From Pocillopora damicornis (taxonomy: Eukaryota): a stretch of 64,000 nt of DNA. Every line of letters begins with the position of its first letter. Positions within the stretch are counted from its first letter, which is position 1. Location of the stretch: positions 62,001-126,000 of the forward strand of contig NW_020845585.1 in the NCBI RefSeq assembly GCF_003704095.1, written 5' to 3'. The notes under the pieces are model-generated. The model saw only the letters and a program-made list of their open reading frames with translations. It was not told where the DNA came from and did no database searches. The position numbers were made by a program, and so were the translations under genes. Positions 24,199-54,151 of this stretch are shown here, in pieces.

Positions 24199-25692
24199 TT
24201 AATATGAGTTTTTCGTACAATCGATCAGTTGGAAGTTCCTGCCACGCATCTTTACGCCATTTTGAACAAGAAAATCACGAATAATCCGGCTACTCACTAT
24301 AATATACCAACAACCTTCGTGTTCTTGACAGATAAGTTTTATAACTCCCAGCTGAACAAAACCTTCCAAACTTTCGGCAATTTCCAGTATTGAAACGTCG
24401 GGAAAGTTCTTCTTTCTTTCACTACGTTGTGCTGTGAAACCAAGCTTGTATAAACTCTCATCTTTTGTGTTCATTTCGTCGTGGGAATGCTCAATCACAA
24501 GAACCGAACATTGACGATCATCTTCCGAAGCTGAAAACCCTTTGTCTTTCGAAGATATATTTTTTAAGTCTTTTTCCTTGTTTCTGTATTTTTCGTTAGG
24601 TCTCTGAGGTAAATTTGATGTGCTTTCCTCTTGGCTGTTTCTAGCTGTCTTAAAGTTTCTGTTGCCGCCTCTCGTGGTTTTCCTACCTTCAATTTGAGGA
24701 AATATCTCTTCCTCTTTTACTCCGGATTTCAAAACTTTTTTCACCCACTTAGACTTCTTTTTGCTTTTCATTGACTTGATGTCAAATATTCCTACACTGC
24801 TGTTATGAAGCATTTTCAAGAAATTGGTTTTCGGTGCTGGCATTAAAGGGTAAGATCGCGATCTCAAGTGATGATTACTGGTTTGCAGCGGAGCAGTCGA
24901 TTGTTTACGGTTCTTCATGTGTTCTTGACTCTTTTCTGATATTCCTTTCTCGCCATTTATAAGAGTGGACGCCCCCTGCCTGACTTTCAAGAAATTTGTG
25001 TCTGGTTCAACCGCTATCGAGAGGTGAGACCGAGATCTCCAGTGATGACCATTGGTTTGCAGAGGAGCAGTCGATTGTTTTCGGTTATTTCTACGTTCTT
25101 GACTCGTTCCTGATTTTCCAGTTTCACTAACTTCAAGAGTAAACGTCCCCTGCCTAACAAGAGGGGCCGAAAAAGATACAGTTTTATTTCCTATTGTTTT
25201 GTGATTTGACTGAGCCGAAGTCTTCACAGTTTTTCCGTAACAACGTCTATTAGTATCTGTGTTTTGATCAACAGCTAATGACTCTGGCCTACTCATTTTA
25301 TTTTTAGCGGGCTGAAAATCTCTTTCTTTAACTTTTACACTATCCTTGGTAATATTTCGCTCTTGCACTCGAAGTTTCGATCTGCTGAGAAGTTTTCCCT
25401 TCTTTGTTTTAGCTCGCATCAATGCTGTGTTTCCATGCCGACCGTCATTGTGTTTGTCGTAGTTATGTGAAAATCCTCTTGCACAGGAAGAAGTCGCTAA
25501 AAACCGAGGCTCCTGTTTGTCAAAATCCACCAAATCGACCTCGCCTAAAATTTCCGACAAGTCCTGATCACCAGTCTGAAACTTTCTATCACAGCCAATA
25601 CAGCCTTTCCCAGTACACAGAATATTCCCTATTTTCGTTTGGTGGACCCGATCTCTTGTGTACAATGGAGCTGTCGATATGAGCTCGCTCAT
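24199..25692 (-). CDS. Intronless ~497-aa uncharacterised protein: basic disordered body, internal 58-aa duplication, C-terminal domain resembling LINE ORF1p
   Basis: 1.5-kb uninterrupted ORF in AT-rich DNA. The first in-frame ATG is at 25692; the track's start at 25782 is a TTG. Confidence 0.75.
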   Translation of the reverse strand: MSELISTAPLYTRDRVHQTKIGNILCTGKGCIGCDRKFQTGDQDLSEILGEVDLVDFDKQEPRFLATSSCARGFSHNYDKHNDGRHGNTALMRAKTKKGKLLSRSKLRVQERNITKDSVKVKERDFQPAKNKMSRPESLAVDQNTDTNRRCYGKTVKTSAQSNHKTIGNKTVSFSAPLVRQGTFTLEVSETGKSGTSQERRNNRKQSTAPLQTNGHHWRSRSHLSIAVEPDTNFLKVRQGASTLINGEKGISEKSQEHMKNRKQSTAPLQTSNHHLRSRSYPLMPAPKTNFLKMLHNSSVGIFDIKSMKSKKKSKWVKKVLKSGVKEEEIFPQIEGRKTTRGGNRNFKTARNSQEESTSNLPQRPNEKYRNKEKDLKNISSKDKGFSASEDDRQCSVLVIEHSHDEMNTKDESLYKLGFTAQRSERKKNFPDVSILEIAESLEGFVQLGVIKLICQEHEGCWYIIVSSRIIRDFLVQNGVKMRGRNFQLIDCTKNSY

Positions 25693-26580
25693 TGTTTTCT
25701 TACTTGAAACAGAACACTGTGAATACGAAGTTGACGAAGGTCGCTGAAGCAAAAAATCCTCACTTCGTCTGGACACCGTCAAAGAGTAGAAAAATAAACC
25801 TCTTTTCGTAAAACATGTCTACCAGTCTTAAAGTGCGACTGAAAACTCATAGGAATTCATAGATATACTCCTTTAGTCGAAAACAATGTATTTAAAATTC
25901 ATTTTCAATCCTTTTTGATTGGTGAACGCGGACACCTGCCGTTTACCATCGCGATCAATTAGCGCTTTGATTGGACAAAATGTTTATTTTATGCAGTGCT
26001 TTGATGAAAGGGGTGAAAACTCGGCACAGCAAGTAAGATATTACAATGAAATGACAACTTGCTATTTGCACAAAATATGTACTCGATCACTTTTGTGAAA
26101 TTATGCATGTGGGGCGACGTCCAAAGAATTAATTCACACGACGGAGACAAACTATCGTGATTAACCAGAAGCAGACCACATAATATAAAATGGCTTTTTG
26201 CGTTTGGAGTGTTACAGTTGAAACTGTAATACTTTTAATTTTAAAGATTTCAAACATATGTTTTTGAGAGCTTCGGTAAGGAACATATTAAAGTGTATCT
26301 TTTCCGCCAGAAAAATTCCCGGCTATTGCATGTCTTCCCCAAAAAATGATAAATATAGAGTGTAAAATTCTACACAAAAGCTGTCGGAAAGACTTTCATA
26401 AATAACAAAACCACGTCTAAACGTCTAAGGATGAAAATAAGTGAAAACCAATTGTCATGGAAATCAGATACATTTTGTCGATCTGAAAATGCACCAGTGA
26501 TAAAAAACAAATCAGGAATAAAATATGAGGCACGAAAGATGACAACCCAATTTACTAAACTCCAATAATTTTTATCGAGG

Positions 26581-27309: not shown

Positions 27310-29450
27310 AATTTAAAATGTTTATACAAAGCATTCTTCAAAGTATTTACAGATTGAGAAGCGCGTAGCCTAAGGGGGAGGTGATTCCAACATCTTGAGG
27401 TTGTTGCAGAAAACGTGCGGCCTCCCTCTTTCTCTCTAATGTATCTTCAAGGTAAAATTGTTAAATTAGCACCTCGTGTATTTCTGCTGTGCTGGCTGTT
27501 TGTTTAGTTCTAACAGTTCGTTTATATAGGCAGGGCAAGTACCCATAATCTTCTTGTAGACCATTAAGCATCTTTTGATGTCAGACTCGATGTTATATGG
27601 CACCTACCCTAAAGTACTAATTACGTTGTTGGGCGTCAAGGACGATTCGAGCACAGCGTTTCTGCAGCTTAAATATCTTATTTATATCATCATGACTACA
27701 GCAGCTTGTCCATGTTACACTGCAACATATATCAGTGGATTAATAAAAGAATTATAAAGTGTACGCTCTGCTCATGGTAAGTAAGCCTTAATTTTGTTAA
27801 GTATGCCGATTCGCTTTGAAAACTTCTTACATAAAGAGTCGATATGAACATCGAAACTGAGCTGTTCATCAAGTTCAAGGCTTAGCAGCTTGACATTCTT
27901 GACCTGTTCCAATGTGCTTCCCTTGAGCTCTATCTTGAGCTTGCGATCTTCATTACTCAGTTAAACGTTTTCGTAGGCGCAGTCCATCAGTTCGTATTGT
28001 CTTCGTCTCGGAACAATTTGGCACAAAACAGAGGCAGTTTGTTGTTTGTTGCCCACTCATCGACGAGGGAGAGTGTTCTTGAGCTCTTCTACATTTATAT
28101 AATAAGAAGAAGCGAGGAGGGTGGTGTCGTCAGCAAACATGCCGTCATTTCGCGTGTGAACATTTAAGGGCAAGTCATTTATGAACTACACAAAAAGTAA
28201 GGGACCCAATATGGAACGGTCGATGTCTGTCCTTTGAATGAAACCAGTTGAATACGATTGTTTATATATGACTTGAGTAAGTAAAGTAAAAGTGCTCCTA
28301 TCCAGTTTATTGGCCTTAAGCTTGCTAAGTAGAGTCACGTGATCTACCATGTCAAAGGCCTTTTGTATAATTAACTAGAACCATACCATTGATATGGTTT
28401 TTGTCCAGATTGAATCGCAGAGTATCAACTATATAGGCAAGCGCTGTCTCTGTGCTGTACTGCTTTCTAAATCCGGACTGGTTCTTATAGATGAGGTCGT
28501 GCACATTTAGATATTCAGACAAATGGTCATGCACATGACGTTCGATGATTTTAGACAGCACGGGAAGTACTGAAATAGGCCTATAGTTATTTACATCATC
28601 CATGGATGGCAGTCACTATGGCTCTTTTCCAATGACAAGGAAAAGTCCCCGATGAAAGCGATAGGTTGATTAGCTTTGCTATTGACGGCGCTAGTAAAGA
28701 GCACAACTGATTCCGTCAACTTCAGTTGCTTTGTTGGCTGGAATTTCAGTAAATATGCCTTCACCATATCAGCTGTGACCAGAGGTATAGTGAATTGTGA
28801 TTCTACAGGTAGCCTTTCGCTAACAAACTATCTGAGTTTGTCAAGATTGCAGCCGTTTGTGGCCAGGAGAGATCGTTTCGCTTTATCTGCAACAGCTGTA
28901 AAGTGCAGATTGAAATAATCCGCTATGTTTGCCGCTGTTGAGATTATCTTTTCTTTGGTAACTTTAAGAAATTCTGGTTGACGGGTTGGTCTCCTCCAAG
29001 GGATCTTATTAACTTCCAAATACATTTAGAGTTCCCTTTGCTATTCTGAAACGACGCCTTGAAGTAGTTTCCTTTTGCTTGTGATCATATTGGTGGCCGG
29101 ATTTCGCGCACCGCGAAACCTTGCCCATGCGTCAGCGGTGTTATATGCCCTGGCTAATTTCAATTGGGTGTCTCTTTTTGACAGCTGATCTAAAATGTCT
29201 CTTGTTAACCGTCGCGGCTGCTTGACTTTAAGAACCCGCTTATGCATGATAGGCGCGTGCATATCAATTGCCTGAAATATTTCCTGCCCCGGCAGATGGT
29301 CTGAAAGAGCATATTTTAGCACCAGTACATCTACAATATTCTTGCTCCTATTTGTATAAATATGATCCAAACAAGTTCCTCTCGCGAGTATTATTACGTA
29401 AATTATTAGCTGGTCAAAGCGCATGGTCTTGAGACCTTTTGTCATGTATA
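27310..29450 (-). mobile_element. Decayed CR1/L2-type LINE ORF2 (endonuclease + reverse transcriptase), frameshifted
   Basis: TCLDHIYTN and LSDHLP (APE endonuclease), NYRPISVLPVLSKIIER, NQSGFRK..STETAL, KAFD-like, SILGPLLF, MFADD (~28130) and C-terminal RTFS....WNHLP occur in order, broken by stops and frameshifts. Confidence 0.92.
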
Positions 29451-31549
29451 CAGTTCTTGGATCAAGGTAACAATGGTGAAAACAAAAGATTGCCTGTGCG
29501 ACTACAGACTTTGGACAAAATTTTAAATACTTAAGAAGTTGAATAACATCAAAGCGCTACTCTTGAAGCCAAAGTTTTTTCTCCCTTGTACTCTACAAGT
29601 TAGGCTGCGTGGAAGATGTTTCATTAGAGGGTTTGATTAGCAGAACTGAATATCTTCCAATGGTTGATCCAGGTAAGTTACCTCTTGGGTTATCGATTAA
29701 GCAGCAATGGTGCAACATAACCGCACATTTCGCAAAGCGCGATTTCTTACCGATTCACGCAACTGTGTCCAACAAGTTTTGTAAAGCTTAGTGTTTAAAT
29801 AGTATATCGAACGAAGAAATAATTTGAGATGGTTCGGCAGGTCGAATTTAACACTTTTGCCTGAAGTTTTTAAGTCTCTAATACAGAATCTTGAAGTGAA
29901 ATGTTCAGTGAACTTAGCCGAATTATGGCTCATAAAACAACACGCGAGTTTTTTTCACATGACAAGGTAGAAAACAAACTGTTCAAGGCGAGTGTTTTTT
30001 GAATGAACGACAGCCGAATTCACCGGAACATGAAGATCGCTAGGGATGACAGCGCGTCAAAACTCGGCTGCAGTAACAGATGTGACTTTCCACTCAACGC
30101 ATCGGAAAGGATATCAGAGCAAGCTCTTATTTTTTCACTCGAAGGGTGGCCCATGTGGTTTCTGAGGCTTGCTTTACTGTGATGACCGGAGATCGCCATG
30201 ATGAGCGAGCCGCTATGGACTTCAGCATGATCATATTCGCTCAGACACCGTCATGATTAGAATGAATTTTAACAGTTCTGCCAGTTTGGTTATATTTTTC
30301 ATCATTTCTGTTTTGTTCTGTTTTGTTTTTGAAGACTGAACTTTATATACTGTATGAGTGTTAGCTGTGTTTGATTTTTATTTCCGTACGTAAGCTTGCA
30401 ATCTAACTGAAAGTGAATTAATCTTTAAACTCGGAATGTCTATTTTGTTTTTCCTTTGAGGATTTTCGTATCTGCTCACGTTTTAATAACGTAAATTACG
30501 GCGCCTGGTATGTTTACAAACCTTTGTTTGGTTCTTCTGTTGCTTGTTGCCGGCTCGCTTGTTCCGAAATTTCACTTTCAATTATCGGAAAAAAAGCTAA
30601 AAAGAAGTCCCGGAAAAGGTCAAACATAGTACAATTTGGCAGATGGCGCGACAGCTTTAGCTCAGCTCTACGCTCTATATTCTCATAGGACACACTCTTT
30701 CAACCAATGACAGCGCGCGTTTTAACCGAACTTTATTATGATAAAAAGTAGCACGCGTAGGACGATTTTCCGTAAGGCACCTTATTTTGTCGACAATAAC
30801 CATGGCATAAAATGACGTTTTTCGTCGTTTCTTTGAAGTACCCCTATTTTGTGGTCCCTGTATTAAGCGCCATTACCCGTGGTTTCGTTATATTTTGAGA
30901 ACGCTCTGTTTTTAATTGGCGGTCATGACAGCTTTAAAACGTTGATGGGATGGAATGATTGCGTGACGTACAAGTCTGACATGACAACGTCTGCGTTCTC
31001 ATAGAAAAGCGTCACGTCTACTGACCTCACGTGCTCTTACATGAGGCGAGTTCGCATCGCGTTGAAGCCGTTAGAATGTGAGAAAAAACGTTTGGATGAA
31101 ACGGTATAACGCCATTTCGTCAAGAAGAAAACAGAGGCTTTTGCACTGGGCCTGGACCAAGGACGCAATCATTGCTGTGAGTAGGACTTTCAGTCGCCTT
31201 TAGATGATCAAGTTACCAGACGGTCGAACTGGTTGTTTTGAATTTTCATCTTCCTTCCCACCAATTATCATTTAGAATTCTTCAGTATCCTTGATGTGGG
31301 ACAGCTTTTGAATCAGGGTAAATGCAACTGATGTTGATTTTAAAGCTGTAAATACTTTCGTGAATAAACTCATCGGTCTTCGTTGATTAAACTTTGCATA
31401 ATAGTGTATTCATCGATCCAGATTGTGAAAAATAATTTATGCTTTCGGAGAATCCTATGCTCAAGTTACAGAACACATAAATATAATTGTTATGACCAAC
31501 CCTTTCGATCTTAGGCTAAAATTGTTTTGTTTAAAAAAACTGCGAGGAT

Positions 31550-31995
31550 ATGGCAAAATCGTTGGTATATTTGAGGCGACATAAACTAAAACTATTGATG
31601 TTATTGCTATTATGCTCGATTGTTTGCCATCTTCTAATTTTGGGATTCAGCAGTGCCAACAACTCAAATTCTGTGCTTTTACAAACGTTCAGTCTCACCA
31701 GACTGGACAAACGCAATGGAACTTCAGATAGTGTGGCTTCTGATTATGTGAATGATCTTCGCAGTAGTGTGGCTTCTGATTATGTGAATGGTCTTCGTAG
31801 TTGGGTGGCTTCTTTAAATGCCTTGTTATACACTGGAGAATGGCAAAATTCATTTTCTTTCATCTACTCGAACGGTGGATCAAGCCCACCAGGCGTGACG
31901 GATGAAAATAATCGCTACGTGATGGTTCTACCTTTTTCAAAAACAGAGGAGAAGGCTTTTAACGATTTGGCCGAAGACGATAAACTCTCCCTTTT
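31550..31995 (+). CDS. N-terminal half (type II membrane anchor + stem) of FKRP/LicD-like gene copy 1; runs into gap
   Basis: MAKSLVYLRRHKLK followed by hydrophobic LLMLLLLCSIVCHLLILGF; open up to the N-run. The link to the LicD halves is inferred from geometry. Confidence 0.7.
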
Positions 31996-32095
31996 NNNNN
32001 NNNNNNNNNNNNNNNNNNNNNNNNNNNNNNNNNNNNNNNNNNNNNNNNNNNNNNNNNNNNNNNNNNNNNNNNNNNNNNNNNNNNNNNNNNNNNNN
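31996..32095. other. Assembly gap (100 N)
   Basis: Run of N; a placeholder length. Confidence 1.
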
Positions 32096-32668
32096 CTTTG
32101 TAATAAATCGACACCAGGACGATTCCAGCGAATCCTTCATTTGATTATAAAGTTTTTCCTGGTGCAACTCATGATCCGCTCGTTTGTGTTCAGTTAACGG
32201 TTGTAAACATGTTGCGCCGTCGAAACGGACCGTCACATCGAGAAATTCATACAGCGTCAAAAGGGAGAGTTTATCGTCTTCGGCCAAATCGTTAAAAGCC
32301 TTCTCCTCTGTTGTTGAAAAAGGTAGGACCATCACGTAGCTATTATTTTCATCCGTCACGCCTGGTGGGCTTGATCCACCGTTCGAGTAGATGAAAGAAA
32401 ATGTATTTTGCCATTCTCCAGTGTATAGCGAGGCATTTAAAGAAGCCACCCAGCTACGAAGATCATTCACATAATCAGAAGCCACACTATCTGAAGTTCC
32501 ATTGCGTTTGTCCAGTGTGGTGAGACTGAACGTTTGTAAAAGCACAGAATTTGAGCTGTTGGTACTACTGAATACCAAAATTAGAAGATGGCAAATACCC
32601 GAGCATAATAGCAATAACATCAACAGTTTTAGTTTATGTCGCGTCAAATATACCGACAATTTTGCCAT
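32096..32668 (-). CDS. N-terminal half of FKRP/LicD-like gene copy 2; runs into gap
   Basis: Close paralogue of 31550-31995 in the opposite orientation, open to the gap. About 350 bp of upstream DNA is also duplicated. Confidence 0.7.
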
Positions 32669-33003
32669 ATCCTCACAAATTTTTTTGAACAAAACTATCC
32701 ACTGTTTAACCGAAGATCGAAAGCGTTGGTGACAAGAACTATACTTATGAGTTCTGTGACTTAAGCATAGGATTCTCCAAAATCAAAAATTATTTACACA
32801 ATCTGGACGAAGACCGATGAGGTTACCGGTATTCATGAAAGTATTTACAGCTTTAAATCAACATCAGCTGCATTTATCCTTATTCAAAAGCTGTCCCAAT
32901 AATTCGTAAGAGTTTCCGGAGTCACATCAAGGATACTGAAGAATTCCAAATAACAACTGGTGGAAATGATGAAAATTCAAAACAACCAGTTTGCGCTCTA
33001 ACC

Positions 33004-33104
33004 TGGTGTAGAAGACACAGTATTCGTCACACTATTGTTTTCATTGTTTTCGTATTTCCGGTTGTGATGAATCTTATTGTGACGTAACCGTGTCTTCTAC
33101 ACCA
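33004..33104. mobile_element. ~100-bp MITE-like element
   Basis: Perfect 15-bp terminal inverted repeat TGGTGTAGAAGACAC ... GTGTCTTCTACACCA. Confidence 0.65.
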
Positions 33105-34030
33105 ATTAAGAGCCACCCGCTTTACCTAATCTGCGACGCTTATCTATGACCACACAGACGTCCTCAGACTTGTCACATCATGCAATCATTCATTCAAATC
33201 AAAGTTTGCAAGGGTCAAAGTAACATCAACCTTAAGGAGGTCACGGCTTTGGATGTTGCGTTTCGAAACCTTTCGTATTTTCGGGCGGCACGAATTTAAC
33301 GGAAGTTGAAACGTTAAAAATCAACCGTGAACCGCTGAATAAACTGTCTCGATGTGATGACGAAAACTGCCACGTTGTCGAAAATAGCGGTAAATTTCGA
33401 TTTTACGATTTCTGTGAATTATGGCTACCTCTATGATTTTGAGAACGTTAAAATAATTAAAGGGATTTAAAGGGACCAAAGGATTTCAGGTGGAAAGGTA
33501 AGCTGCAGTCCTGACTTTGTAGTGAAAATAAAGCAGTTCAGAGTCGGTTAAAGAAAATTAAATTGTACTGAATTAAATACTTTTCATGGAAGGTCAAACA
33601 AACAAAGAAAGGAAGGTTTGTTCTTCCAAAAAATGAATGACCAAATCAACATTGGAAAAATAACATCTACCTAAGGGTCGGCGCTGTTTCATTTAACATC
33701 CAACTAAAGGTATTTAGGTTAAAGGTCTGACAAACAGGAGAAGAAGACTTGACCACAAATATTAAACGCGAACTTTTTTATGTCAGAGTCCAAAGGTTAA
33801 AAAAAAAGAAAAGAAAATATATATTTGAGACGTAATCCATGCATTATATCTGGATGCATTCATTTATAATACGGCGATACTGTAGAGTAAAGTATGAAGT
33901 CGTATCTTATCTCATCGAATTATCAACCGTGCTAAGGGTTTCTTTCAGTGCGCGTCGACTTCTCCCGTTGCTTCAGTGGCAGAGACTTCTGGCACTGCAA
34001 GTGGTTTATCTGATTTGTACTTTTTAATAG

Positions 34031-34445
34031 AGGTCCGCACTGAATCGCACATAATTTTCTGGGAAGATTCACAGCCTGTTAAGGGACAGAAATTAAATTT
34101 CGACGGCATTCCTTTTATGATTATCGGAACAGCCGTATATGACTGCCATCAGGGAAAAGACAGAAATCTGGCGTTGAAGAAGCGCATCAAAGGAGAAGAA
34201 ACGAAGTTGAGAAGCTAAATCTCCAAAATTAGACATCAAAAACTTTAATGCAACAGCTTTTGATTTGGTTGAAAAGGTTTAATAAAAAGTTTCTACTGCT
34301 ATCTTTACTTTTCGTCTTAAAGATGAAATCTGGAGATCATTGTGGAGGGCCCATTTCAAACAGAGTCACACAAAATACAAAGAAACTGGACTGTTCAGCA
34401 CGGATCATTGTGAGGGAAGTGGTCATGTTCCCTTCATGCCATCGG
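34031..34445 (+). pseudogene. Truncated CaRF-like (calcium-responsive transcription factor / MULE-related) DNA-binding domain, two exon-like pieces
   Basis: LNFDGIPFMIIGTAVYDCHQGKDR and TKKLDCSARIIVREVVMFP match the CaRF pattern DGIPF...ECQYG...TCPARIYIKKVQKFP. Acceptors at 34030 and 34322; similarity stops abruptly after VMFP. Confidence 0.7.
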
Positions 34446-34559
34446 AAACAGGAAAAGCTGTAAGCAAATGGAAAACTTTTCCCAAGGATACAACTGATCA
34501 TCTCTTTAGTGTGAGAGGCCGTGAAAACAAATTAGTTTCAGTGCCTTTTCTTAACATGT

Positions 34560-35145
34560 GGAAGTATTTTTCAAGTGCTGAGCTTACCTCCCGTCTTCAG
34601 TTTTTGGTTAGTTGGGATTTTTTCTGCATCTCTCTGATATGGGTGTGTTGTGAGAGTTGTTTGACGCCAAATCCATTTGCTTAAATCAGGTAGTAATGCA
34701 AAGTAGAACAGAAAAGGTGCACATTTAACACAGAGTCACATGTAAGCTTTGTCAATACCGTCAAAACTGACAACTTTTGGATCAACATTGGGCCGAATAA
34801 TTAGCGACTCTTTTTTTCAACAGTTCAAGAAAAGGTGGCTAAAAAAACGTGTCGATCATCGAGTATCACACATTTTTCCTACACCGTCTCGGACAGAATT
34901 GGCCTGACTAATCATCACGATTATCTGTAGAAAATTTACATTAATTGGCAGTTTTACGGTTGGTACTTCTCTTACTACATAAAAAAGGTTTATACCGCCG
35001 TAAAAAAACAACATCAAAGCTTAGCCATTGGTCCCATACATGCATTTCAACACTAGACACGAAGTGATTGAGAAACAGATGATCAACATGGACGCCATCA
35101 TGGCGAAGTTCATCACAGATATGACTTCGTTTCCGAACACCCTGA
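34560..35145 (+). pseudogene. DUF229-like pseudogene fragment
   Basis: Reverse-complement homologue of 43740-44350 and 39960-40450, encoding KPLVPYMHFNT and MINMDAIMAKFITDM, with stops and frameshifts. Confidence 0.65.
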
Positions 35146-35567
35146 GATGAGACGGCTCGGGGTGGGATGGGGTGAATTGTGATGAGTGGGATGGGTGAAG
35201 TAAAGTGGGACTGCATGAGGTGCTTTGAGCCAAGGCCAGTGGGATGTGTAGAGGTGCGGTTGGTGGAGTGGGGTGGGGTGAGATAAAACATTTGAACTGA
35301 CGAGGGCGAATTGGTGCGATGGGAGGAGAGGGGTGGGAGAGTTCAGGCAACACGAGGGAAGTTTGAGGGGAGGAGTGCAGTGGGTGGAAAATTTGTAAGG
35401 TAAAAACTTATGAAAACGTGCCTTAATTTAAACTGATTTTTATATTGATTTTCCCCTTTCAGGAAACTGTAACTCACACACAAAACATGGCTATGGGAAC
35501 TGCATACGCTTGGTTGGAAAATCATTTGAAAAGATTGTCAAGCGATTTTGAGGGGAATACATTTTGA
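35145..35567. repeat. G-rich (GGGTG/GGGAT) dispersed repeat; inverted second copy at 42740-43150
   Basis: Direct reverse-complement similarity, also visible as paralogous spurious ORFs (MIFQPSVCS..., MLPELSHPS...). Confidence 0.85.
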
Positions 35568-35568
35568 C

Positions 35569-35629
35569 CGTTGTCACGGTATTGTTTGATCGTTGTCACG
35601 GTATTGTTTGATCGTTGTCACGGTATTGT
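35569..35629. repeat. 22-bp tandem repeat, ~2.8 copies
   Basis: Unit CGTTGTCACGGTATTGTTTGAT. Confidence 0.9.
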
Positions 35630-35885
35630 GAATACCGCGGTTCTCTTACTGGGAAGTTAATAGGCCCTACAAACTATATCGAGGTAAATTTTTTGCAGTA
35701 TCTTTGGAATATATGGAGTAAATACCAAAATTGGAAGCCTTGCAATTTTATTTAAATTTACATTGCGTTTCGTTTAGCAGTCCCTGATTCTACACCTGAC
35801 GACACTTGAACAAATATTAAAATGTTCCTATAAACGTAATGAATAAAATATTTAATCGGCGAAGCTGGCGGTTGAAACAAAACGG

Positions 35886-36071
35886 TTTGGTTTTATCAAC
35901 TGCGTTAATAAGAAAAATTGGCCACCGTAAAAAGGTATCTAAAGCTGAAGTTTCGAACGTTATCTCTTAATCATTTGCGAAGCGCTAACGGACTTAATAT
36001 TTGAAACGTCAACTTTTGAAACTCTTTTCGTTGGCCAATTCACATATATCGACTCCGTTGATAAAACCAAA
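35886..36071. mobile_element. Palindromic (fold-back) repeat with degenerate hammerhead-like cores
   Basis: Arms TTTGGTTTTATCAAC / GTTGATAAAACCAAA, inner AATTGGCCA / TGGCCAATT, and AAAGCTGAAGTTTC / GAAACGTCAACTTT. Confidence 0.7.
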
Positions 36072-36080
36072 TTTTATTAA

Positions 36081-36172
36081 CGGTTCAAATCCCGTACAGG
36101 CCTGGATTTTTTTTGGAGCCTTATTTCACTACAAGTAGTGTTAATAACTGCGAAGATCGCTTCCATATTCAT
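36081..36172 (+). mobile_element. 5'-truncated tRNA-derived SINE; paralogous copy on - strand at 39829-39921
   Basis: Starts at B-box-like GGTTCAAATCCC. The body ...TACAGGCCTG..TTTTTT..GCCTTATTT.CACTAC...ATAACTGCGAAGATCGCTTCCATATTCATG is shared with the second copy. Confidence 0.7.
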
Positions 36173-36629
36173 GTACAAATTATATTGTTCCTATAAACAG
36201 TCATGCAAAACGAAACTCCTAACGAAATCGTGAGCAAGAAATACCCAACTAAGAGGAGACGAAACAGAAAATTGCCACAATCCAAGAAAAATTCCTATTG
36301 CTAGAAAGGGCACCTGCCTGCCAGAGATTGTTACCAAAGACAAAACCTGCAGCGAACCTGAAACGTGACAGATTGCAAGGCAGATAAATTAATCTACATA
36401 AGAGACGACATGCGTTAACACGCGCGTCGGAGAAAGCGAACTTCCCACGAGCGAGTGTGGGTCTGTTTTACTGCCCACCCGTTTTATTCGGCTGCTTAAT
36501 GTACAGGCTATCATATCTAGGGGGAAAATTGACACTCTTGTGAGCTGTGACAAATGAAAAAGTGAAAAATGGCATTTGTCTAAATTAGGAGGGAGCAAAA
36601 CTTTGCAACACTTGCGGTCAGAAAGTTTG

Positions 36630-37640
36630 TTAGTCTGAGCAACCAAACCATTCTCCTCCATGAGCTGGTTGAAGATAACCTTTGCCATACCAATTAGTTA
36701 ACTCATAGTCAATGTCCTTCAGAGTAACAAATTGTTCATTGTTAATGGTAGCAAAAGCGGATCCGTTCAACCAAACGGAAGGGGAAATATAAAAGTCGAC
36801 GTAACGACGTTCTCTCCAGCGTGATGAAACAGGCAGCATACCCTGTACGGCTTGCTCAATATCGCTGCTAAATAATAAATTATTACCTTCTAAATCATCA
36901 GGGCCATCAAAAAGGGAAGCTGTGTCAACCTCTATATAAGGTGCCATCAGCATATGGGCTCTTGGTATACCCATATAAGATATCCCTAAATAATAATGGC
37001 TGCCCTTTGTCCTTAAAAGTTCTGCAATAGATGAATAGGTCGAAGAATTACCGTAGTCAGCCTTCGTAAGCGCGATATCAACATCACACGTCCAAGGTAT
37101 AACAGTCTGACTTCTAACTGCACCTAACAGAGTACCATAAATAACCCGATAATCTACACCAAGTTGGGTCAGTGCCCATGTTATATCTTTCAGCATTTGA
37201 AATAAGACGATCCCGCAACAAATCGGTGCTGCCACGCTGGACAGCTCTGTTGGCTTAACATAGGGTTTCTCCGGGCATAATTTCCAGTTTGACACACACG
37301 TTGTCCATTCAATTCGATTGTTTGTGACGATGCGAAGAATATTGAATTTATTTCCAAAAGCGGCGTACTCCGGGACATCGTTTGAACCCTCTAATGTTCC
37401 ACGATCCACGCGCGCTATTTCGTGTGTCCAACTGCAATTTGAAAGTTTCGCTATCTTTAGCTCGCCTTTAGATCGAACAAAAAATTCTAACAAAGCCATT
37501 CTACCAAATCCGTTGAGCAATCCTCCATAGCGATGAAACACGTCACCTCTCATCACGAAAGGACCTTGTGCAACGTTACAAACTTGGTACACAATCAGTA
37601 TGCCGTTCGCTAAGTCCGGAAACGAAAATTTGTTTGAAGA
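36630..37640 (-). CDS. C-terminal half of an FKRP/LicD-family phosphotransferase; 5' end lost in gap
   Basis: EWTTC-x6-C...PICC zinc-finger-like segment followed by YRVIYGTLLGAVRSQTVIPWTCDVDIAL, the LicD nucleotidyltransferase motif, arranged as in FKRP. Confidence 0.85.
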   Translation of the reverse strand, partial: SSNKFSFPDLANGILIVYQVCNVAQGPFVMRGDVFHRYGGLLNGFGRMALLEFFVRSKGELKIAKLSNCSWTHEIARVDRGTLEGSNDVPEYAAFGNKFNILRIVTNNRIEWTTCVSNWKLCPEKPYVKPTELSSVAAPICCGIVLFQMLKDITWALTQLGVDYRVIYGTLLGAVRSQTVIPWTCDVDIALTKADYGNSSTYSSIAELLRTKGSHYYLGISYMGIPRAHMLMAPYIEVDTASLFDGPDDLEGNNLLFSSDIEQAVQGMLPVSSRWRERRYVDFYISPSVWLNGSAFATINNEQFVTLKDIDYELTNWYGKGYLQPAHGGEWFGCSD

Positions 37641-37740
37641 NNNNNNNNNNNNNNNNNNNNNNNNNNNNNNNNNNNNNNNNNNNNNNNNNNNNNNNNNNNN
37701 NNNNNNNNNNNNNNNNNNNNNNNNNNNNNNNNNNNNNNNN
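37641..37740. other. Assembly gap (100 N)
   Basis: Run of N; a placeholder length. Confidence 1.
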
Positions 37741-38827
37741 ATGGAGCCTTCATATAAAGAATACAGGCCCGGTGCTAAATACACGTCTCGAAAGTAAAAC
37801 GTCAACAAATGGATACTCTCCAAACAAATTTTCGTTTTCAGACTTCGCGAACGGCATACTGATTGTGTACCAAGTTTGTAATATTGCACAAGGTCCTTTC
37901 GTAATGAGAGGTGACGTGTTTCATCGCATCGGAGGATTGCATAACGGATTTGGTAGAATGGCTTTGCTAGAATTTTTTGTTCGATCGAAAGGCGAGCTGA
38001 AGATAGCAAAACTTTCAAATTGCAGGTGGACACACGAGATAGCGCGCGTGGATCGTGGAACATTAGAGGGTTCAAACGATGTCACGGAGTACGCCGCTTT
38101 TGGAAATAAATTCAATATTCTTCGCATCGTCACAAACAATCGAATTGAATGGACAACGTGTGTGTCAAACTGGAAATTATGCCCGGAGAAACCCTATGTA
38201 AAGCCAACAGAGCTGTCCAGCGTGGCAGCACCGATTTGTTGCGGGATCGTCTTATTTCAAATGCTGAAAGATATAACATGGGCACTGACCCAACTTGGTG
38301 TAGATTATCGGGTTATTTATGGTACTCTGTTAGGTGCAGTTAGAAGTCAGACTGTTATACCTTGGACGTGTGATGTTGATATCGCGCTTACGAAGGCTGA
38401 CTACGGTAATTCTTCGACCTATTCATCTATTGCAGAACTTTTAAGGACAAAGGGCAGCCATTATTATTTAGGGATATCTTATATGGGTATGCCAAGGGGC
38501 CATATGCTGATGGCACCTTATATAGAGGTTGACACAACTCCCTTTTTCGATGGCCCTGATGATTTAGAAGGTAATAATTTATTATTTAGCAGTGATATCG
38601 AGGAAGCCATACAGGATATGCTGCCTGTCTCATCAGGCTGGAGAGAACGTCGTTATGTCGACTTTTATATTTCCCCTTCAGTTTGGTTGAACGGATCTGC
38701 TCTTGCTGTGATTAACAATGAACAATTTGTTACTCTGAAGGACATAGACTATGAGTTAACTAACTGGTATGGCAAAGGTTATCTTCAACCAGCTCATAGA
38801 GGAGAATGGTTTGGTTGCTTAGACTAA
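37741..38827 (+). CDS. C-terminal half of a second FKRP/LicD-family phosphotransferase; 5' end lost in gap
   Basis: Same motifs as 36630-37640; intact and open from the gap to the TAA at 38825-38827. Confidence 0.85.
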
Positions 38828-39106
38828 TAAATTTGCTGACAGCAAGTGTTTAAAGTTTTGCTCCCTCCTGAATTTAACAAATGCCATTTCTCACTTTTTT
38901 ATTTGTCACTGCTTATAAGAGTGTCGATTTTCCCATAGCACAATCATACAACTATGACTAAATGGTGCTAGCTTTCACAAAAATGTTCCTTCAGTTTTCA
39001 ACATGTGGTTTTCGAGTGCACCCTAAAAAAGGCAGTTACGAGGTGGCCGTGTTCTTTCAATGTTGGCTGTACGTTAGCCAGCTGCATGAAAATAGTAGCT
39101 CTCGAA

Positions 39107-39852
39107 GGGTTAGTGTTTTGTTGTCACACAAAGCTAGCACAGGGCACTAAAAATGCATTTACATAAGCATTTACATGGAAAAACTTCTCCGGCTCTCTTT
39201 GACGAGCATCGTTTTGGAGTGTCACTCGCTTAAGAATATGATAGCCTGCACATCAAGCACCCGATTGGAACGGGTGCTCGCGCGTGGGAAGTTGCGTGTA
39301 TGACTGTTTATAGGAAAAATATAACTTGGACATGAATATCGAAGCGATCTTTGCGGAGGGTTAGTGATTTGTTTATACAAACAAAGCGAGCACAGGGCAC
39401 TAAAGATGCATTCATATAAGCATTTACATGGAAAAACTACTCTCTCTTTGACGAGTATCGTTTCGGAGTATTATTCGCTTAAGAATATGATAGCCTGCAT
39501 ATCAAGCACCCGATTAGAACGGGTGCTCGCGCGTGGGAAGTTGCGTGCATGACTGTTTATAGGAAAAATATAACTTGGACATGAATATGGAAGCGATCTT
39601 TGTAGGGGGTTAGTGTTTTGTTTATACAAACAAAGCGAGGAAAGAGCACTAAAGATGCATTTACATAAGCATTTAAATGGAAAAACTACTCTCTCTTTGA
39701 CGAGTATCGTTTCGGAGTGTTATTCGCTCAAGAATATGATAGCCTGCATATCAAGCACCCGATTAGAACGAGTGCTCGCGCGTGGGAAGTTGCGTGCATG
39801 ACTGTTTAGAGGAAAAATATAACTTGGACATGAATATGGAAGCGATCTTTGC
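39107..39852. repeat. ~249-bp tandem repeat, three copies
   Basis: Units start at GGGTTAGTG at 39107, 39358 and 39607. Each contains AAGCACCCGATT.GAACG.GTGCTCGCGCGTGGGAAG. Confidence 0.95.
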
Positions 39853-39959
39853 AGTTATGAAAACTACTTAAGCAGTAGTGAAAATAAGGCCTAAAAAAAT
39901 TCAGGCCTGTATAGGATTTGATCATTCGTTTCCTAGTCATTTCGTGTCCAGTGCTGAAA

Positions 39960-41230
39960 TCCATGTATGAGACCAATGGCTTAGCTTGGATGTTGATTTT
40001 TCAGGCGGTATCAACCTTTGTTATGCAGTCAAAGAAGTACCAACTGTAAATGCAAATTTTCCCCAGATAATCGTGATGATTAGTCAAGCCAATTCTGTCT
40101 AAGGCGGTGCAGGAAAATGTGTGATACTCGATGATCGACAAGTTTTTAGCCACCTTTTCTTGAAATGTCAAAAAAAGACAGTCGCTAACTACTCGGCCCA
40201 ATATTGATCCAAAAGATGTCAGTTTTGACGGTATCGACAAAGCTTACATGTGACTGTGTTAAATGTGCACCTTTTCTGTTCTACTTTGCATTACCAGCTG
40301 ATTTAAACAAATGGATTTGGCGTCAAACAACTGTTAAGCACACCCATATCAGAGATACGCAGAAAAAATCCCAGCTAAAGGAAAGCAACAAAAATTTACC
40401 TAAGTGCCTTCTGCTTTCAGTTTTGTGTAAGCTAAAGTGCAAATATTTTAGTGAGTTATATTTATCAACAATTGCAAGATTATATTGCTAAAGGAATAAG
40501 GAGTTTAACTCAGCATTCATTTTTGCCGTTTTCCTGTTGCTACATACGCTGGCCTAGCTTGGAATCACTCAGCAAAGTCGTGGTTATGCCTAGCGTTATG
40601 ACCAACCTTGTGCCCACGGTACGCTGCATTGGGACATTGCAATCACCAGGTTGTACATCGTTAACGTGCAAGCACATACGATTCCTTGTTACACACGCAG
40701 CGTACATGCGAACTACCTCCTCCTTTCCCCCTTCTAAATACGTAATGCCGAGATGAATGCCCGCATTGCAGTTATTCACGCATCCTTAAAGTGACACCTT
40801 GTACGGACGTTCGGTTCAATGGTCACGTAATATCTCAAATTTTCTAGGCTTTATGGTTATTAGTATCACTACCATTTTTATAGGTATGGGGCTTCGTTGC
40901 GCGCTGCGAGCTCTGCTATAATTGATAAAACTAACTCGACCAAAGAGTCTCAACCCATTTCACATTATTCAGAAAAACCATAATGCTGTGCACTACTTAC
41001 CTTTCTTTGGTCAAGATCAGATAAACCAATCCCCCAAATATTGTACCAACAAAGGTCTTCTTGAACGTCTGGTAGCGTCTGGTAGCGTCTGGTAGCGTCT
41101 GGTAGCCCCACTTTTTAAAGGCCCCATATAACACCTCTACGCCTAGGGGAGCCCGTGTATTCTTCGCGGAGGCACTAACCTCGTCGTCATCTAGCGAGTG
41201 ATAAAGTGTTTCTAATAAATACATCTTACA
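39960..41230 (-). pseudogene. DUF229-like pseudogene fragments, including an exon remnant ending at a GTAAGT donor near 41000
   Basis: 39960-40645 parallels 43830-44545. 41000-41200 encodes LGVEVLYGAFKKWGYQT then, frameshifted, QEDLCWYNIWG, resembling the DUF229 GY-T-x-x-ED motif. Confidence 0.6.
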
Positions 41231-41871
41231 TCTGGGTACGACATCACTGGGGCTTCTAAATACTTACTCCTAGTATATCCTAGGGCAGTGGAGGCTGAAA
41301 CTGCAAATCCTTCCCAATGATCTGGTGGAACATGTTCTTCGCAATAGTGAATGGCATAACGAGTAAAGAGAGTTTCAACTCTTGGAGCGCTTCTCGATTG
41401 AATATTGTAAATCCAAAACCAAACTGAGTAACTACAACGTCAATCAGAGCACAAAGAAATATTATAGAGCCAATGAGATTTCAGAGCAAAAAAAAAAAAA
41501 GCAAGCAACCGGCTGAAGCGCGGGAAAACGCAGTTGACTAAGTCGCGATTGGTTTAGGTTTGGCATTTGATCGGTTGAGAGAGAGACAAGAATCATCTGG
41601 ACCAATTGGAGACCACAGTGAAGCAAAAACAATAATATCCCGCATTTCTTTTGACATTCACTTAAAAACCTGTGATGAATTTCGCCATGATAGTGTTCAT
41701 GTTGATCATCCGTTCGTTTTAAATATGTTTTATTAGTAACATTTTTCATAATCGGTATGGGGCTGGTAGTTGATTGACAGTATTATTTAAAACTTATCAT
41801 TAAATTATTTAGAAAACCATACGATAATGTAATGACATGATTAAAGTTTAGTTGCATTTAGCTGATAAAAA

Positions 41872-42252
41872 GTGCCTCTTTATGCTCTATGACGTTCACA
41901 AAGCATTCATGAGTTTGAACGATCCTCAGAAATGAACTCCAATGGTTATACAATAACGGAAATATTTTCAGAGATCCCTGTAAACCGCACATGTGCCGAC
42001 TTCTACATGCTTCCCTTGACTAGATGGAAGTGTGAGGGTTTTGACGCAGAGATTCCTGTAAATGACAGTGCAAATGGTCACATGGGGCTGGCCGAATTCG
42101 CTGTTGGGTACATAAATGATGCTATACAAAAACAATACATGAGTGGTGAGACTGCCTCTGTTTGTTGATATATTTTGTTGCTATGTTTAAATCACTTTGC
42201 AATGAAGGAGATTTGGAAATCCACAATCACGAATTTTCATCTTAAATCCATT
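41872..42252 (+). pseudogene. Inverted duplicate of the 3' part of the DUF229-like pseudogene
   Basis: Reverse-complement match to 43184-43572 (LYDVH.AFMSL, IFSEIPVNRTCAD, NDAIQKQY). Confidence 0.75.
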
Positions 42253-43159
42253 TTGAAAGGAGAGCAAAGCTTGTCAAAGGATCGGCTGCAGGATAGCATA
42301 GCTAGCATAATTTCGGTATGTTTGTCCTCTTTTTTCCCTGCCGATATTACATTTATTCGTTGTCATTCATGAAAGCGTTAACTGAAATAGCAATGAGATT
42401 GAATTCTACCAACCACAGTTTGCATGCGTCGGTCAGCCTGAATGTTTTTATAGTATTAAGAAGTATTATAACGTGCATTAAGTGTCAATTATCGAGCTCT
42501 CTTTTCTCGCGCTTACTTTTTAATAAGAGCTTAACTTGAACGGCTCTTTGAACATTGTAGTACATGAGAAGTTGCAGGTTAGGGTCAGGGTTAGGGTTTG
42601 CTTAAGGTTGCGTGTGCCTTTGTGTGCAGAGTTGGACGCCATGATAAGAAAACTGACATCCTTGATCTGTTTTGACATTTTTCAATCAAAGTGATATCGG
42701 AATGCTTTAGTTGGTGAGACAAAAATAGTGTTTACCCTCGTCAAAATGTATTCCCCTTGAAATCGCTTGACAATCTTTTCAAATGATTTTCCAACCAAGC
42801 GTTTGCAGTTTCCATAGCCACGTTTTGTGTGTGTTACAGTTTCCTGAAAAGGAAAAAAATAAATTTAAGAATCAATATAAATTAAGGCACGTTTTTATGC
42901 CTTTTTATCTCACAACTTTTCGTTCCACTGCACTCTTCCTCTCGAATTTCCCTCGTGTTGCCTGAACTCTCTCATCCCTCTCCACCCATCGCACTAAGTC
43001 GCCCTCATTTCACACACCCCACCCCACTCCACCAATCGCACCTCTACACACCCCACTGGCCTTGCTCAAACCACCTTATGCAGTCCCACTTCTCTCCACC
43101 CACCCCACCCATCACAATTCACCTCATCCCACCCCGACCCGTCTCATCTTAAAACCTTT

Positions 43160-44545
43160 AACTGATATGATCACATCGTGTGCTAATGGATTGTGGATGA
43201 AAATTCGTGATTGTGGATTTCCAAATCTCCTTCATTGTCCAATGATTTAAACATAGCAACAAAATATATCAACAAACAGCATATGGAGGCCGTCTCACCG
43301 CTCATATATTTTTTTCGGATAGCATCATTTATATACCCAACATCAATTCGGCCAACCCCATGTGATCATTTGCATTGTCATTTACAGGAATCTCTGCGTC
43401 AAAACCCTCACACTTGCATCTAGTCAAGGGAAGCATGTAGAAGTCGGCGCGTGTGCGGTTTACAGGGATTTCTGAAAATATTCCTGTCACTGAATAATCG
43501 TTGGAGTTCATTTTCTGAGGATCGTTCAAACTCATGAATGCTTCCTGAACGTCATAGAGCATAAAGAGGCGCTTTTGGTTCGTTATCAAGGCACTCGTCC
43601 TTCTTGCCCCCAGTTTGTCCTTGACGCCATCAGGAATGGTCATGAAGAACAGTGGATCGAATAATTCTCTCCTTTCTTCTTCAGTGTAGCTAAACGGAGT
43701 CATTGTGTGGCCATGGTCAGATAAGATGAATGTCTGAAGCCATATATGTGATGAACTTCGCCATGATGACGTCCATGTTGATCATCCGTTTCCCAGTCAC
43801 TTTAATTTGTGTCCGGTGTTGAAATGCATGTATGAGACCAATGGCTTAACTTAAATGTCGTTTTTTATGGCGGTACAAACCTTTGTTATGCAGTCAAAGA
43901 AGTACCAACTGTAAAACTGCTCATTAATGCAAATTTTCTCCGGATAATCGTAATGATTAGTCAAGCCAATTCTGTCCAAGGCGGTACTGAAAAAATGTGT
44001 GATACCTTGATAAACGACAAGTTTTTTAGCCACCTTCTCTTGAAATTCGTTCCACCCGTTAAAAAAAGACAGTCACTGATTGCTCGGCCCAATGTTGATG
44101 CAAAAGATGTCAGTTTTGACGATATCGACAAAGCTCACATGTGACTCTGTGTTAAATGTGCATCTTTTCTGTTCTACTTTGCGATATTATTACCTGATTT
44201 AAACACTGAATCGATTTGGCGTTAAACAACTCTTGCAGCACACACGTATCAGAGAGATGCAGAAAAAATCCTAGCTAAGGGAAAACAGCAAAAGTTTACT
44301 CAGGTATCTTCTGCTTTCAGCCTTGTGTAAACTTGAGCGCAAATATTTCAGTAAGTTATATTTATCAGCAATTGAAAGATTATATTGCCAAAGGAATAAG
44401 GAGGTAAACTCAGGCTTCATTTTTACCGTTTGGCTGTTGCTACAAATGCTGGCCTGGCTTGGAATCACTCACCAAAGTCGTGGTCATGCCTAGCGTTATG
44501 ACCAACCTTGTGCCCACGGTACGCTGCGTTGGGACATTGCAATCG
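43160..44545 (-). pseudogene. Longest DUF229-like (alkaline phosphatase/sulfatase superfamily) pseudogene piece
   Basis: FILSDHGHTMTPFSYTEEERRELFDPLFFM...ALITNQKRLFMLYDVQ...IFSEIPVNRT matches the DUF229 SDHG...E...P...L..N..RL...D pattern; multiple frameshifts. Confidence 0.75.
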
Positions 44546-44559
44546 AGTATGCGCTCTTC

Positions 44560-45140
44560 ACTTCAACGCCCATTAGTGGTGATAATTTTAGACTTATCCC
44601 ACCCAATTGTATGGTTAGTTAGGTATGTGTGCTCCGATAAAGCTGAATTTTCCTTTTTACAAAAGAAAACCGCTTTTTGATGCTCTTTCAAACGTGTACC
44701 AAACTGACGTTTGGTCTGTCCAACGTATTCAATTCGTTGTCACAGTCATTGCAAGGAATGGAATAAATGCCGTCGGTTCGTTGTTCTTTCGTGACAGGAT
44801 CCTTAGGTTTGGCAAAAATATGCCCTAAAGTCTGAAAAGGTTTTTGAACAACTTTAACGTTGTGGCTATTCAAAATTCTCTTGATTGGTTCCGCAACACT
44901 CTGAATGTAAACATTAACCGCAAAACCAGTCGCTGGTTCCCTTTCATCAGGAGTGCTACTAGTTGTAACTGGTTTTTGGCAGTTACGGAGGAAAGTTTTT
45001 GTATAGCTATTCGCCTTTAAGACATTAGAAGCATATTTCCTCTCCTCAGCCTTCGAATCGAGTGAAGATGGTAGACAGTCAGCCCTCCTGAGTAGAGTTT
45101 TGGCTACAGACTTTTTATGGCAAATAGGGTGGTGGTTATA
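44560..45140 (-). mobile_element. Penelope-like retroelement fragment (RT C-terminus + GIY-YIG endonuclease)
   Basis: HHPICHKKSVAKTLLRRA...LKANSY...KPKDPV...GIYSIPCNDCDNE, then frameshifted YIGQTKRQFGTRLKEHQK...SALSEH...HTIGWD. Confidence 0.9.
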
Positions 45141-45364
45141 ACGAACGGACCGAGTGAAGCGATGTCCATGCATCACGACAGAGAACCAAATATTTTTCCG
45201 GCCCACCCAACAAAACTCAGTCAATAAGGATTTTATCAATGATACCACTCGTTGAAAAAATTTTGACATTTTGTTTCAACCCTAATAAGATACATGAAAA
45301 ATTACTCTGTCCTGATTGATTAAGATTATCAAAAATAAGTTATTCACGTAGAGTTCTCTAAAGG

Positions 45365-45551
45365 GGGTAAATTACCATAGAAACTGTAGTACTGCGTCGG
45401 TGGGAGAGTATAACAGGGTAATTTAGTATTATCAAATGAGTTGATAACGTAAATTGGCCACCATAAAGAGTTTAAAAGCTAAGCTTTTAAATTTTTCATG
45501 AAGACCGATTTACATCATCGACTCAATTGATAATACTAAATTACCCTGTTA
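45365..45551. mobile_element. Fold-back copy of the same repeat family as 9120-9260 and 35886-36071, internally deleted
   Basis: ~31-bp inverted arms TAACAGGGTAATTTAGTATTATCAA... (45411) and ...TTGATAATACTAAATTACCCTGTTA (45551). An ~80-bp-period local duplication follows (45535-45670). Confidence 0.7.
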
Positions 45552-46221
45552 TCCACATAGTAAGTTATTTTCAAATATGAAAATATTCAATGCTAATATA
45601 TTCAAAATATTCAAAACTAAATTACCCTGTTATCCACATAGTAAGTTATTTTTAAATATGAAAATATTCAATTAAATATCAATATTTCCTAGCCGTAGAA
45701 TGGTCTAAGCAAAATTTATTGAAAATGACCATCTGTCAAATATTTTTGGAAATCTGGGAAAATGTTTTACCCGTGTAAAGATGATTCGAGACTACAACTA
45801 CCGGTACTCATGGCATGCGGCTTAAATACTCCGTGAGATTCATAAGAAGTTTAAGAGTTAAATTTTGGATTGTTTCACAGTTCACGGTTAATCCCTATTG
45901 AGCAGGTTTTGATGATAGATGCACCAGAACGATACAGACCAATACAAGTATCCCTAATGTGTATAACAACAAACCACGACGCAGTCATTTTTTCATGTCG
46001 AAAAAAACTGATTGGCACCAATGAATTATAAGTCATGGTAATAGGATTTAGAGGAGGTGATTCAGTAACAATAATGAAACGTGTGAACTTAATCTTTTTT
46101 CCCCGTCATAATTCCCGCACCAGTTTGATTAGGACTTCGCAAACACCTCTAAGAGGCCGCCCTAAGTATGGTCTTTGAGGAACGCACGCCTCTTTACTTG
46201 CCGTCACACGCTGAACACTCT

Positions 46222-46234
46222 GTTGCTAGGCTAC
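46222..46234 (+). promoter_or_regulatory. Candidate RFX X-box upstream of LRRIQ3
   Basis: GTTGCTAGGCTAC, one mismatch from GTTGCTAGGCAAC, about 100 bp before the ATG. Confidence 0.5.
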
Positions 46235-46325
46235 GCGTAGCAAAACTACAACAACTGTCATGGCTTCCCGGCTTTGTTGTTTCGTCGAGTTGGTCTCAAC
46301 ATTGTGACAGTGTTTGCGCTTAACG

Positions 46326-53900: not shown

Positions 53901-54151
53901 TGACTTGCATCTGACCCTTGAACTATAACATCATCTTTTTTATGGGTCCAGCTTTAAGCAACCTTTGAAAATATGCCCACAGACTGACCCAGAAGATTGT
54001 ATGATAAATATCCTCCACACAAAGCAAAAGCTGGTGCCACATGCTGATGGAATGCAGAATTTATCACCACTGTTGGGATCTAGTTTGTAAACTTCTAACT
54101 GTTTTTTTTTTCAGGAATTTACTAGTTCAAGACTTATTTTCCAATGTAATG

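Follow-up and report, generated by a model that had tools for sequence, protein, structure and literature searches.

Do four gene halves around two assembly gaps represent broken genes, or two whole genes pulled apart by a contig that was placed backwards? This question is raised by a window of 64,000 nucleotides (nt) from the stony coral Pocillopora damicornis (NCBI RefSeq assembly GCF_003704095.1, contig NW_020845585.1, positions 62,001 to 126,000 of the forward strand), which is the whole stretch of DNA that we analysed and to which all coordinates below refer. The window contains only two gaps, both of exactly 100 N, at 31996-32095 and 37641-37740, and four stop-free coding pieces, here called N1, N2, C1 and C2, abut them. 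We found that the contig between the gaps was very probably scaffolded in reverse between two tandem genes for proteins resembling the fukutin-related protein (FKRP). The pieces, with lengths in amino acids (aa) and with a stem domain of the glycosyltransferase A (GT-A) type, are as follows.

31550-31995, plus strand: N1, the 5′ end of gene 1, coding for residues 1-148 in the 565-aa form, with the membrane anchor, a stalk carrying a 12-aa duplication, and the beginning of the GT-A-like stem
31996-32095, no strand: gap 1, 100 N; in the flipped arrangement it replaces about 241 nt of gene 1, as sized from the 565-aa relative P0158
32096-37640, minus strand: the middle contig, 5,545 nt, most likely reverse-complemented in the scaffold
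32668-32096, minus strand: N2, the 5′ end of gene 2, coding for residues 1-191 in the 553-aa form
37640-36630, minus strand: C1, the 3′ end of gene 1, coding for residues 230-565 and closed by the stop, with the remaining stem, a C4 zinc finger and the LicD nucleotidyltransferase domain
37641-37740, no strand: gap 2, 100 N; after the flip only 2 nt, which begin codon 192 in gene 2
37741-38827, plus strand: C2, the last base of codon 192, residues 193-553 and the stop of gene 2

The middle contig thus holds the 3′ part of gene 1, a spacer of 3,961 nt and the 5′ part of gene 2. N1 and N2 agree at 391 of 410 aligned nt, with a 36-nt duplication only in N1, and C1 and C2 agree at 966 of 1011 nt. 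The duplication appears as a 36-nt tandem repeat (31729-31813) in the stalk of gene 1 and is taken to be real because P0158 has it too; another relative, P0001, carries a longer repeat array at this position. As scaffolded, stop-to-stop frames run through both gaps and give four chimeric open reading frames (ORFs) of 220, 281, 483 and 436 aa. The preliminary description had foreseen four such ORFs, and for naive stop-to-stop calling through both gaps this was borne out.

In our reading of the sequences, the pairing of the halves in full-length proteins is the deciding evidence for the flip. A search with C2 returned P0003, a protein of 553 aa, of which residues 1-191 match N2 (187/191) and residues 193-553 match C2 (355/361). 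Searching with P0003 then yielded five further 553-aa proteins (P0153-P0157) as well as P0158, which stands for a cluster of 261 sequences. P0158 is identical to N1 at 145 of 148 residues, the duplication included, and to C1 at 332 of 336, while the six 553-aa proteins are identical to N2 at 187-189 of 191 residues and to C2 at 355-359 of 361. We also compared 13 database proteins at the residues that distinguish the window copies, 13 in the N part and 21 in the C part. P0158 carried the residues of N1 (13/13) and C1 (18/21), and the six 553-aa proteins those of N2 (12/13) and C2 (18-21/21). N1 was paired with C2, or N2 with C1, in none of the 13 proteins compared, among which P0159-P0161 have undecided N parts and three more have no diagnostic N sites. 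The pairing of N1 with C1 and of N2 with C2 that the flip had been proposed to restore is therefore the one found in P0158 and the six 553-aa proteins. We also built a quick tree of 65 rows from C1, C2 and the C-terminal 345 residues of 63 proteins, with support from the Shimodaira-Hasegawa-like approximate likelihood ratio test only; it placed C1 as sister to P0158 (support 98) and C2 with four of the 553-aa proteins (support 89).

The junction itself is continuous in relatives. We aligned 93 of 245 collected proteins, leaving out near-duplicates, fragments and distant LicD hits, and the junction was spanned within one protein in 89 of the 93 members, as expected if the N and C halves are one ORF in relatives; a four-residue spacing at the junction was kept in 82/82 rows having both anchor residues. 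After the flip, N2 and C2 abut with a single residue absent, residue 192, which is Glu or Lys in relatives, and gene 2 falls short of its length by 2 nt of 1,662 and gene 1 by 241 nt of 1,698. If instead the scaffold were right, the gaps would hide the other halves of four genes, arranged tail-to-tail across gap 1 and head-to-head across gap 2. Gaps of 100 N give no true size, and inverted duplications would fit the flank homology described below equally well, but this arrangement demands four hidden half-genes together with a one-codon abutment of N2 and C2 by chance (p of about 0.002-0.012 for two unrelated ends meeting within 0-3 nt), when two gene types are enough for all four halves. We give it almost no credence. 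Taken together, the pairing in full-length proteins and the abutment of N2 and C2 support a mis-oriented scaffold.

Gap 1 would then correspond to 81 codons, residues 149-229 of P0158, minus 2 nt that are present. It may be asked whether more is hidden there, that is, whether, besides the need for a flip, the array contains additional copies or the three contigs derive from different haplotypes. Other variants exist among the relatives (P0159/P0160, 491 aa; P0163/P0166), three close locus tags occur in Desmophyllum, and a run of 100 N is a placeholder that carries no size. Against further copies, N1 and C1 match one and the same protein at 98-99%, so that a fill of 241 nt suffices, and we consider additional copies in gap 1 improbable.

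The positions of the breaks in the protein fold also bear on whether the halves could be genes by themselves. In an AlphaFold model of P0003 (mean predicted local distance difference test score 84.7, predicted template modelling score 0.80), both breaks lie inside the GT-A-like stem, model residues 81-324, and that of gene 2 lies between the adjacent strands 187-191 and 194-198. Because the breaks fall inside one folded domain, the halves are not separate genes, and with gene 2 cut between neighbouring strands neither half would make a protein alone. The preliminary description had the positions and strands of the four halves right, but they are not simply anchor halves and catalytic halves as it had put it, given where the breaks fall. 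All halves are 97.9-99.4% identical to their intact counterparts, without decay, and the ratio of nonsynonymous to synonymous substitution rates (dN/dS) between C1 and C2 is 0.29.

We then considered the sequences flanking the genes, which are duplicated as well.

30937-31549, plus strand: region upstream of gene 1, with a second copy ahead of gene 2 (31227-31549 pairs with about 32991-32669, and 30937-31013 with 33207-33135)
34600-36522, no strand: downstream flank of gene 1, matching the downstream flank of gene 2 in pieces
34600-35128, no strand: DUF229-adjacent piece with DNA homology to 43736-44286
35145-35568 against 43149-42740, inverted: G-rich element, 85%
36085-36207 against 39921-39795, inverted: match resembling a short interspersed element (SINE), 85%
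38828-44286, no strand: downstream flank of gene 2, rearranged by triplication, duplication and internal inversion
39106-39854, no strand: a 249-nt unit present three times, 92% matches, including the tail of the SINE-like element
39918-40644 and 43778-44544, no strand: duplication in the downstream flank of gene 2
41868-42252 against 43576-43185, no strand: internal inversion of part of the DUF229-like sequence, in a gap-free contig

The middle contig and its flanks gave 13 local alignments, every one inverted in the scaffold and turned direct by the flip, one of them being an uninformative palindromic element, and the 21-mers common to the middle contig and the flanks number 0 on the same strand versus 720 on the opposite strand. 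The preliminary description had stated that the flip co-orients SINE, G-rich and DUF229 pieces. The change from inverted to direct was seen for all of these, but the DUF229 label holds only at 43329-43778: a Pfam match to DUF229 was found only in this ORF (minus strand, E 9.5e-9), which lies amid duplicated and apparently decayed pieces, and 34600-35128 has the label only through DNA homology to 43736-44286, which overlaps the 5′ end of the ORF. A DUF229 domain in the middle contig was rejected, since the profile matched none of 17 other short pieces. The element at 36085-36207 and 39921-39795 is presumably a SINE; an Rfam search over 28000-47000 gave three matches, all below gathering thresholds, to microRNA-precursor families on the palindrome 45404-45558, and none on the SINE-like piece. 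We also rejected the co-orientation of the flanks as independent proof, because any flip makes inverted matches direct and the geometry is the same as that of the gene halves. The flank geometry fits a flip or a true inverted duplication equally and does not decide between them.

How might the contig have come to be reversed? Under the mis-orientation that we favour, the genome would carry two direct tandem copies about 5.7 kb apart, apparently intronless and coding for 565 and 553 aa, and the assembly would have broken within both copies, with the 5.5-kb contig between them placed backwards. After the flip the gene starts lie about 5,659 nt apart, and the DNA of the copies is about 95% identical. 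Each of the four contig ends is no more than 2 nt away from a codon at which close relatives vary, a property shared by 29% of local positions (p of about 0.008-0.025, post hoc), and the breaks may be forks of the assembly graph at allele or paralogue variants. In its left half the middle contig has 806 nt resembling the left neighbour and 268 nt resembling the right one; in its right half the figures are 0 and 1,968. Links mis-mapped between paralogues could have caused the wrong orientation, and they would favour the palindromic order seen because each contig end resembles the neighbour it was set beside. Proximity scaffolding is known to mis-orient short contigs and thereby to hinder gene prediction, according to one report (PMC7672694). 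The case reported there and the present one are alike in that a short contig between fixed-length gaps is misoriented and gene prediction is disturbed; unlike that case, paralogy at both ends is probably a systematic cause here.

Several observations weigh against this account. The last 54 nt of the left contig are identical to N2, but the break signature of a de Bruijn graph with k=55 that this might suggest was not accepted, as identical runs of 60, 62, 115 and 290 nt were assembled through, and C1 begins only 3 nt ahead of a difference between the paralogues. The full-length proteins come from other records and show the ancestral pairing, not the orientation in this individual. The dN/dS of N1 and N2 is 0.82, on few sites. 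Finally, the right contig has an inversion of its own (41868-42252 / 43576-43185) that the flip leaves unchanged, which means that inversions do occur at this locus. The last point speaks for a real and recent inversion that broke within each of the paralogues, possibly in one haplotype only. Its junctions would be near-perfect hairpins, which assemble poorly and would explain the gaps, the haplotype concerned would have lost the function of both genes, and the end of N2 and the start of C2 share one codon, as at a true breakpoint. However, once the contig is flipped the paralogues run in the same direction, and direct repeats do not produce inversions when they recombine, which leaves no inverting mechanism. 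Both breakpoints would also be needed in the same 81-codon stretch of two genes, the break falls on the Glu/Lys variant codon and all four ends adjoin variant codons, and, as described above, no half shows decay. We therefore regard a real inversion as very unlikely, and a backward middle contig as much the best explanation.

We next examined what the restored genes encode. Both C halves matched the Pfam family LicD (PF04991) with E 1.1e-7 and 32.6 bits against a gathering threshold of 22.6, over profile positions 5-40 of 227 only, and the match was found in 91 of the 93 aligned family members; no relevant Pfam family matched N1 or N2. The only PDB sequence match at E <= 1, obtained with C2, was FKRP (6kaj, E 1.3e-5). 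A single N-terminal hydrophobic segment spans residues 11-37 in P0158 and was also placed at 12-37 (Kyte-Doolittle 2.8), and the P0003 model has a helix at 2-35. Over both domains the top fold match of the model was again FKRP (Foldseek E 7e-11), and VIA-align superposed model residues 88-548 on FKRP chain residues 47-489 with Z 13.9 and 300 residues aligned at a root-mean-square deviation (rmsd) of 13.3. Taken singly, the stem (81-324) matched B4GALNT1 (Z 10.6, rmsd 3.7 Å, 172 aligned) and the catalytic domain (359-540) matched ANT(2'')-Ia (Z 9.7, rmsd 3.2, 125 aligned). The FKRP-like label given earlier is thus upheld by sequence and fold, although the genes are not FKRP orthologues.

FKRP is a ribitol-phosphate transferase (PDB 6KAJ-6KAN, 6L7S-U) described by Kuwabara 2020 (PMC6965139) as a tetramer that moves ribitol-phosphate from cytidine diphosphate (CDP)-ribitol to the glycan of alpha-dystroglycan. 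In that account Asp360 is called indispensable for activity, Arg295 binds the acceptor ribitol-phosphate, and His252 and Lys256 in the stem bind phospho-mannose. Like FKRP, the coral protein has an N-terminal membrane anchor, a GT-A-like stem, a C4 zinc-finger loop and a nucleotidyltransferase fold. The zinc-finger cysteines Cys332/339/358/359, present in 93/93 rows, align with FKRP Cys289/296/317/318, and Asp403 and Asp405 (each 92/93 rows) correspond to FKRP Asp362 and Asp364. Asp499, which is Asp in 90/93 rows and lies on strand 497-502 of the model, is probably the equivalent of FKRP Asp416. The hG[GS] motif of FKRP (Gly344-Gly345-Ser346) reads Tyr385-Gly386-Thr387 in the coral protein, with Gly in 91/93 and Thr in 93/93 rows.

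Two comparisons run counter to a close likeness. FKRP Asp360 aligns to coral Thr401 (Thr 80, Ser 10 and Asp 1 of 93), and the whole-chain rmsd to FKRP of 13 Å means that the two domains are placed unlike those in the crystal. Corals are not alone in having Thr here, since 50 of the 109 motif copies in the weaker hits P0033-P0152 show it. FKRP Arg295 aligns to coral Leu338 (69/93), beside which Lys337 (71/93) might stand in for it. The Pfam family FKRP_N (PF22921), whose model was present in the library, matched 0/93 family members at E <= 0.05; an Atlas feature search with the homologue P0167 (58% identical to P0003 and not a gene of the window) ranked FKRP_N-bearing clusters first (0.92). The coral protein further differs from FKRP in its low structural identity (12-17%), in a longer stretch ahead of the third Asp, and in belonging to a multicopy family that is tandemly duplicated in stony corals. 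On the basis of Asp360, Arg295 and FKRP_N, true FKRP orthology was rejected: the coral protein is FKRP-like in layout, but it is not FKRP.

Compared with the LicD family (PF04991), represented by the Mycoplasma phosphocholine transferase mf1 in one report (PMC11982090), the coral protein has the LicD core in common and adds the anchor, the stem and the zinc finger. With GT-A glycosyltransferases such as B4GALNT1 it shares the stem fold, in a domain that looks shortened. No conserved acidic pair was found in the aligned family after strand 111-115, the presumed GT-A DxD site, and by analogy with FKRP the stem is probably a binding module, which would serve to bind the acceptor.

Judging from the family, the coral proteins likely work as FKRP and LicD proteins do: they would be secretory-pathway enzymes with a type II membrane anchor that take an alcohol-phosphate from a CDP-activated donor and attach it to a glycan. 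As in the family, Mg or Mn would be held at Asp403, Asp405 and Asp499, and cytidine monophosphate (CMP) would be released; a Golgi location, which the preliminary description had assumed, is suggested by FKRP. Donor and acceptor are probably different from those of FKRP, and it is most improbable that the coral proteins catalyse FKRP's own reaction; an inactive protein appears unlikely as well. The literature offers one more specific idea. LicD relatives transfer phosphocholine (PMC11982090), jellyfish O-glycans carry aminoethylphosphonate (AEP) by a transfer route that a review describes as not known (PMC6994554), and bacteria have been reported to produce CMP-AEP near LicD-like genes (PMC6697681). 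Because of these three observations, we tentatively suggest that the subfamily may add AEP, phosphocholine or phosphoethanolamine to cnidarian glycans from a CMP- or CDP-activated donor, although we hold this to be a rather speculative assignment. As part of the same tentative reading, the proteins would form a coral-expanded FKRP-like subfamily marked by Thr for Asp360, a shortened stem, repeated tandem duplication, and sequence exchange between copies.

All 13 distinct hits with a named organism came from stony corals (Desmophyllum, Oculina, Stylophora and Pocillopora), and UniRef labels the family members as LicD/FKTN/FKRP nucleotidyltransferase-domain proteins. Adjacent locus tags were found in Oculina, as two pairs that are each sisters in the tree, and in Desmophyllum, so that tandem duplication appears usual in the family. 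We found no paper on a coral LicD/FKRP-like family in a literature search that ran without most subscription journals, and, to judge by their titles, the matches listed for fukutin-related and coral terms all concerned disease in humans, mice or zebrafish. Over a run of 290 nt (38201-38490 vs 37256-36967), C1 and C2 do not differ at all; this run takes in the catalytic motif and the latter half of the zinc finger, and about 6 synonymous differences would be expected in it (p of about 0.002, post hoc). Relatives swap paralogue-specific residues (P0003 at 480-484, P0153 at 442/445). These sequence patterns suggest gene conversion between the copies; collapse of the assembly is another possible explanation for the 290-nt identity. 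An assembly error of this type is nothing new, and the two genes add new members to an enzyme family already known.

Other features were observed in the window. A fragment resembling ALS2CR8/CARF (PF15299, E 2e-9; 33898-34215, plus strand) lies in the spacer between the genes and has no counterpart downstream of gene 2. Palindromic elements resembling miniature inverted-repeat transposable elements occur at 45410-45552 and 35886-36071 (77% alike over 78 nt), the former giving spurious microRNA-precursor matches. A 195-aa frame at 44688-45275 (minus strand) had no Pfam match and is assumed to be a fragment of a Penelope-type retroelement, and a multi-exon leucine-rich-repeat gene follows at 46308-50984 (plus strand; LRR_9 E 1.3e-5, final ORF 594 aa). 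On the other side lie an exon with an Erv1/Alr domain (12425-13186, minus strand, E 8.4e-22, with a C-terminal hydrophobic segment), which we take to be QSOX-like, and a low-complexity open frame of 539 aa (24199-25818, minus strand), which contains an internal repeat (24849-24984 / 25023-25158) and matched no Pfam family at E < 0.05. The observed to expected ratio of CpG dinucleotides is 0.7-1.2 at 22000-54000, around the FKRP-like pair, and 0.04-0.33 at 2000-8000, 14000-22000 and 54000-60000; we take this contrast to suggest methylated gene bodies in the low-CpG blocks and an unmethylated FKRP-like locus.

Overall, this assembly gives no readable form of two apparently intact genes unless the contig is flipped, upon which gap 2 shrinks to about 2 nt from 100. 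The locus is an example of how near-identical tandem paralogues can give false palindromes and false pseudogenes in counts of coral gene families. It also points to a multicopy FKRP-like subfamily of stony corals with an active site unlike that of FKRP, a candidate for the enzymes that place zwitterionic or phosphonate groups on cnidarian glycans.

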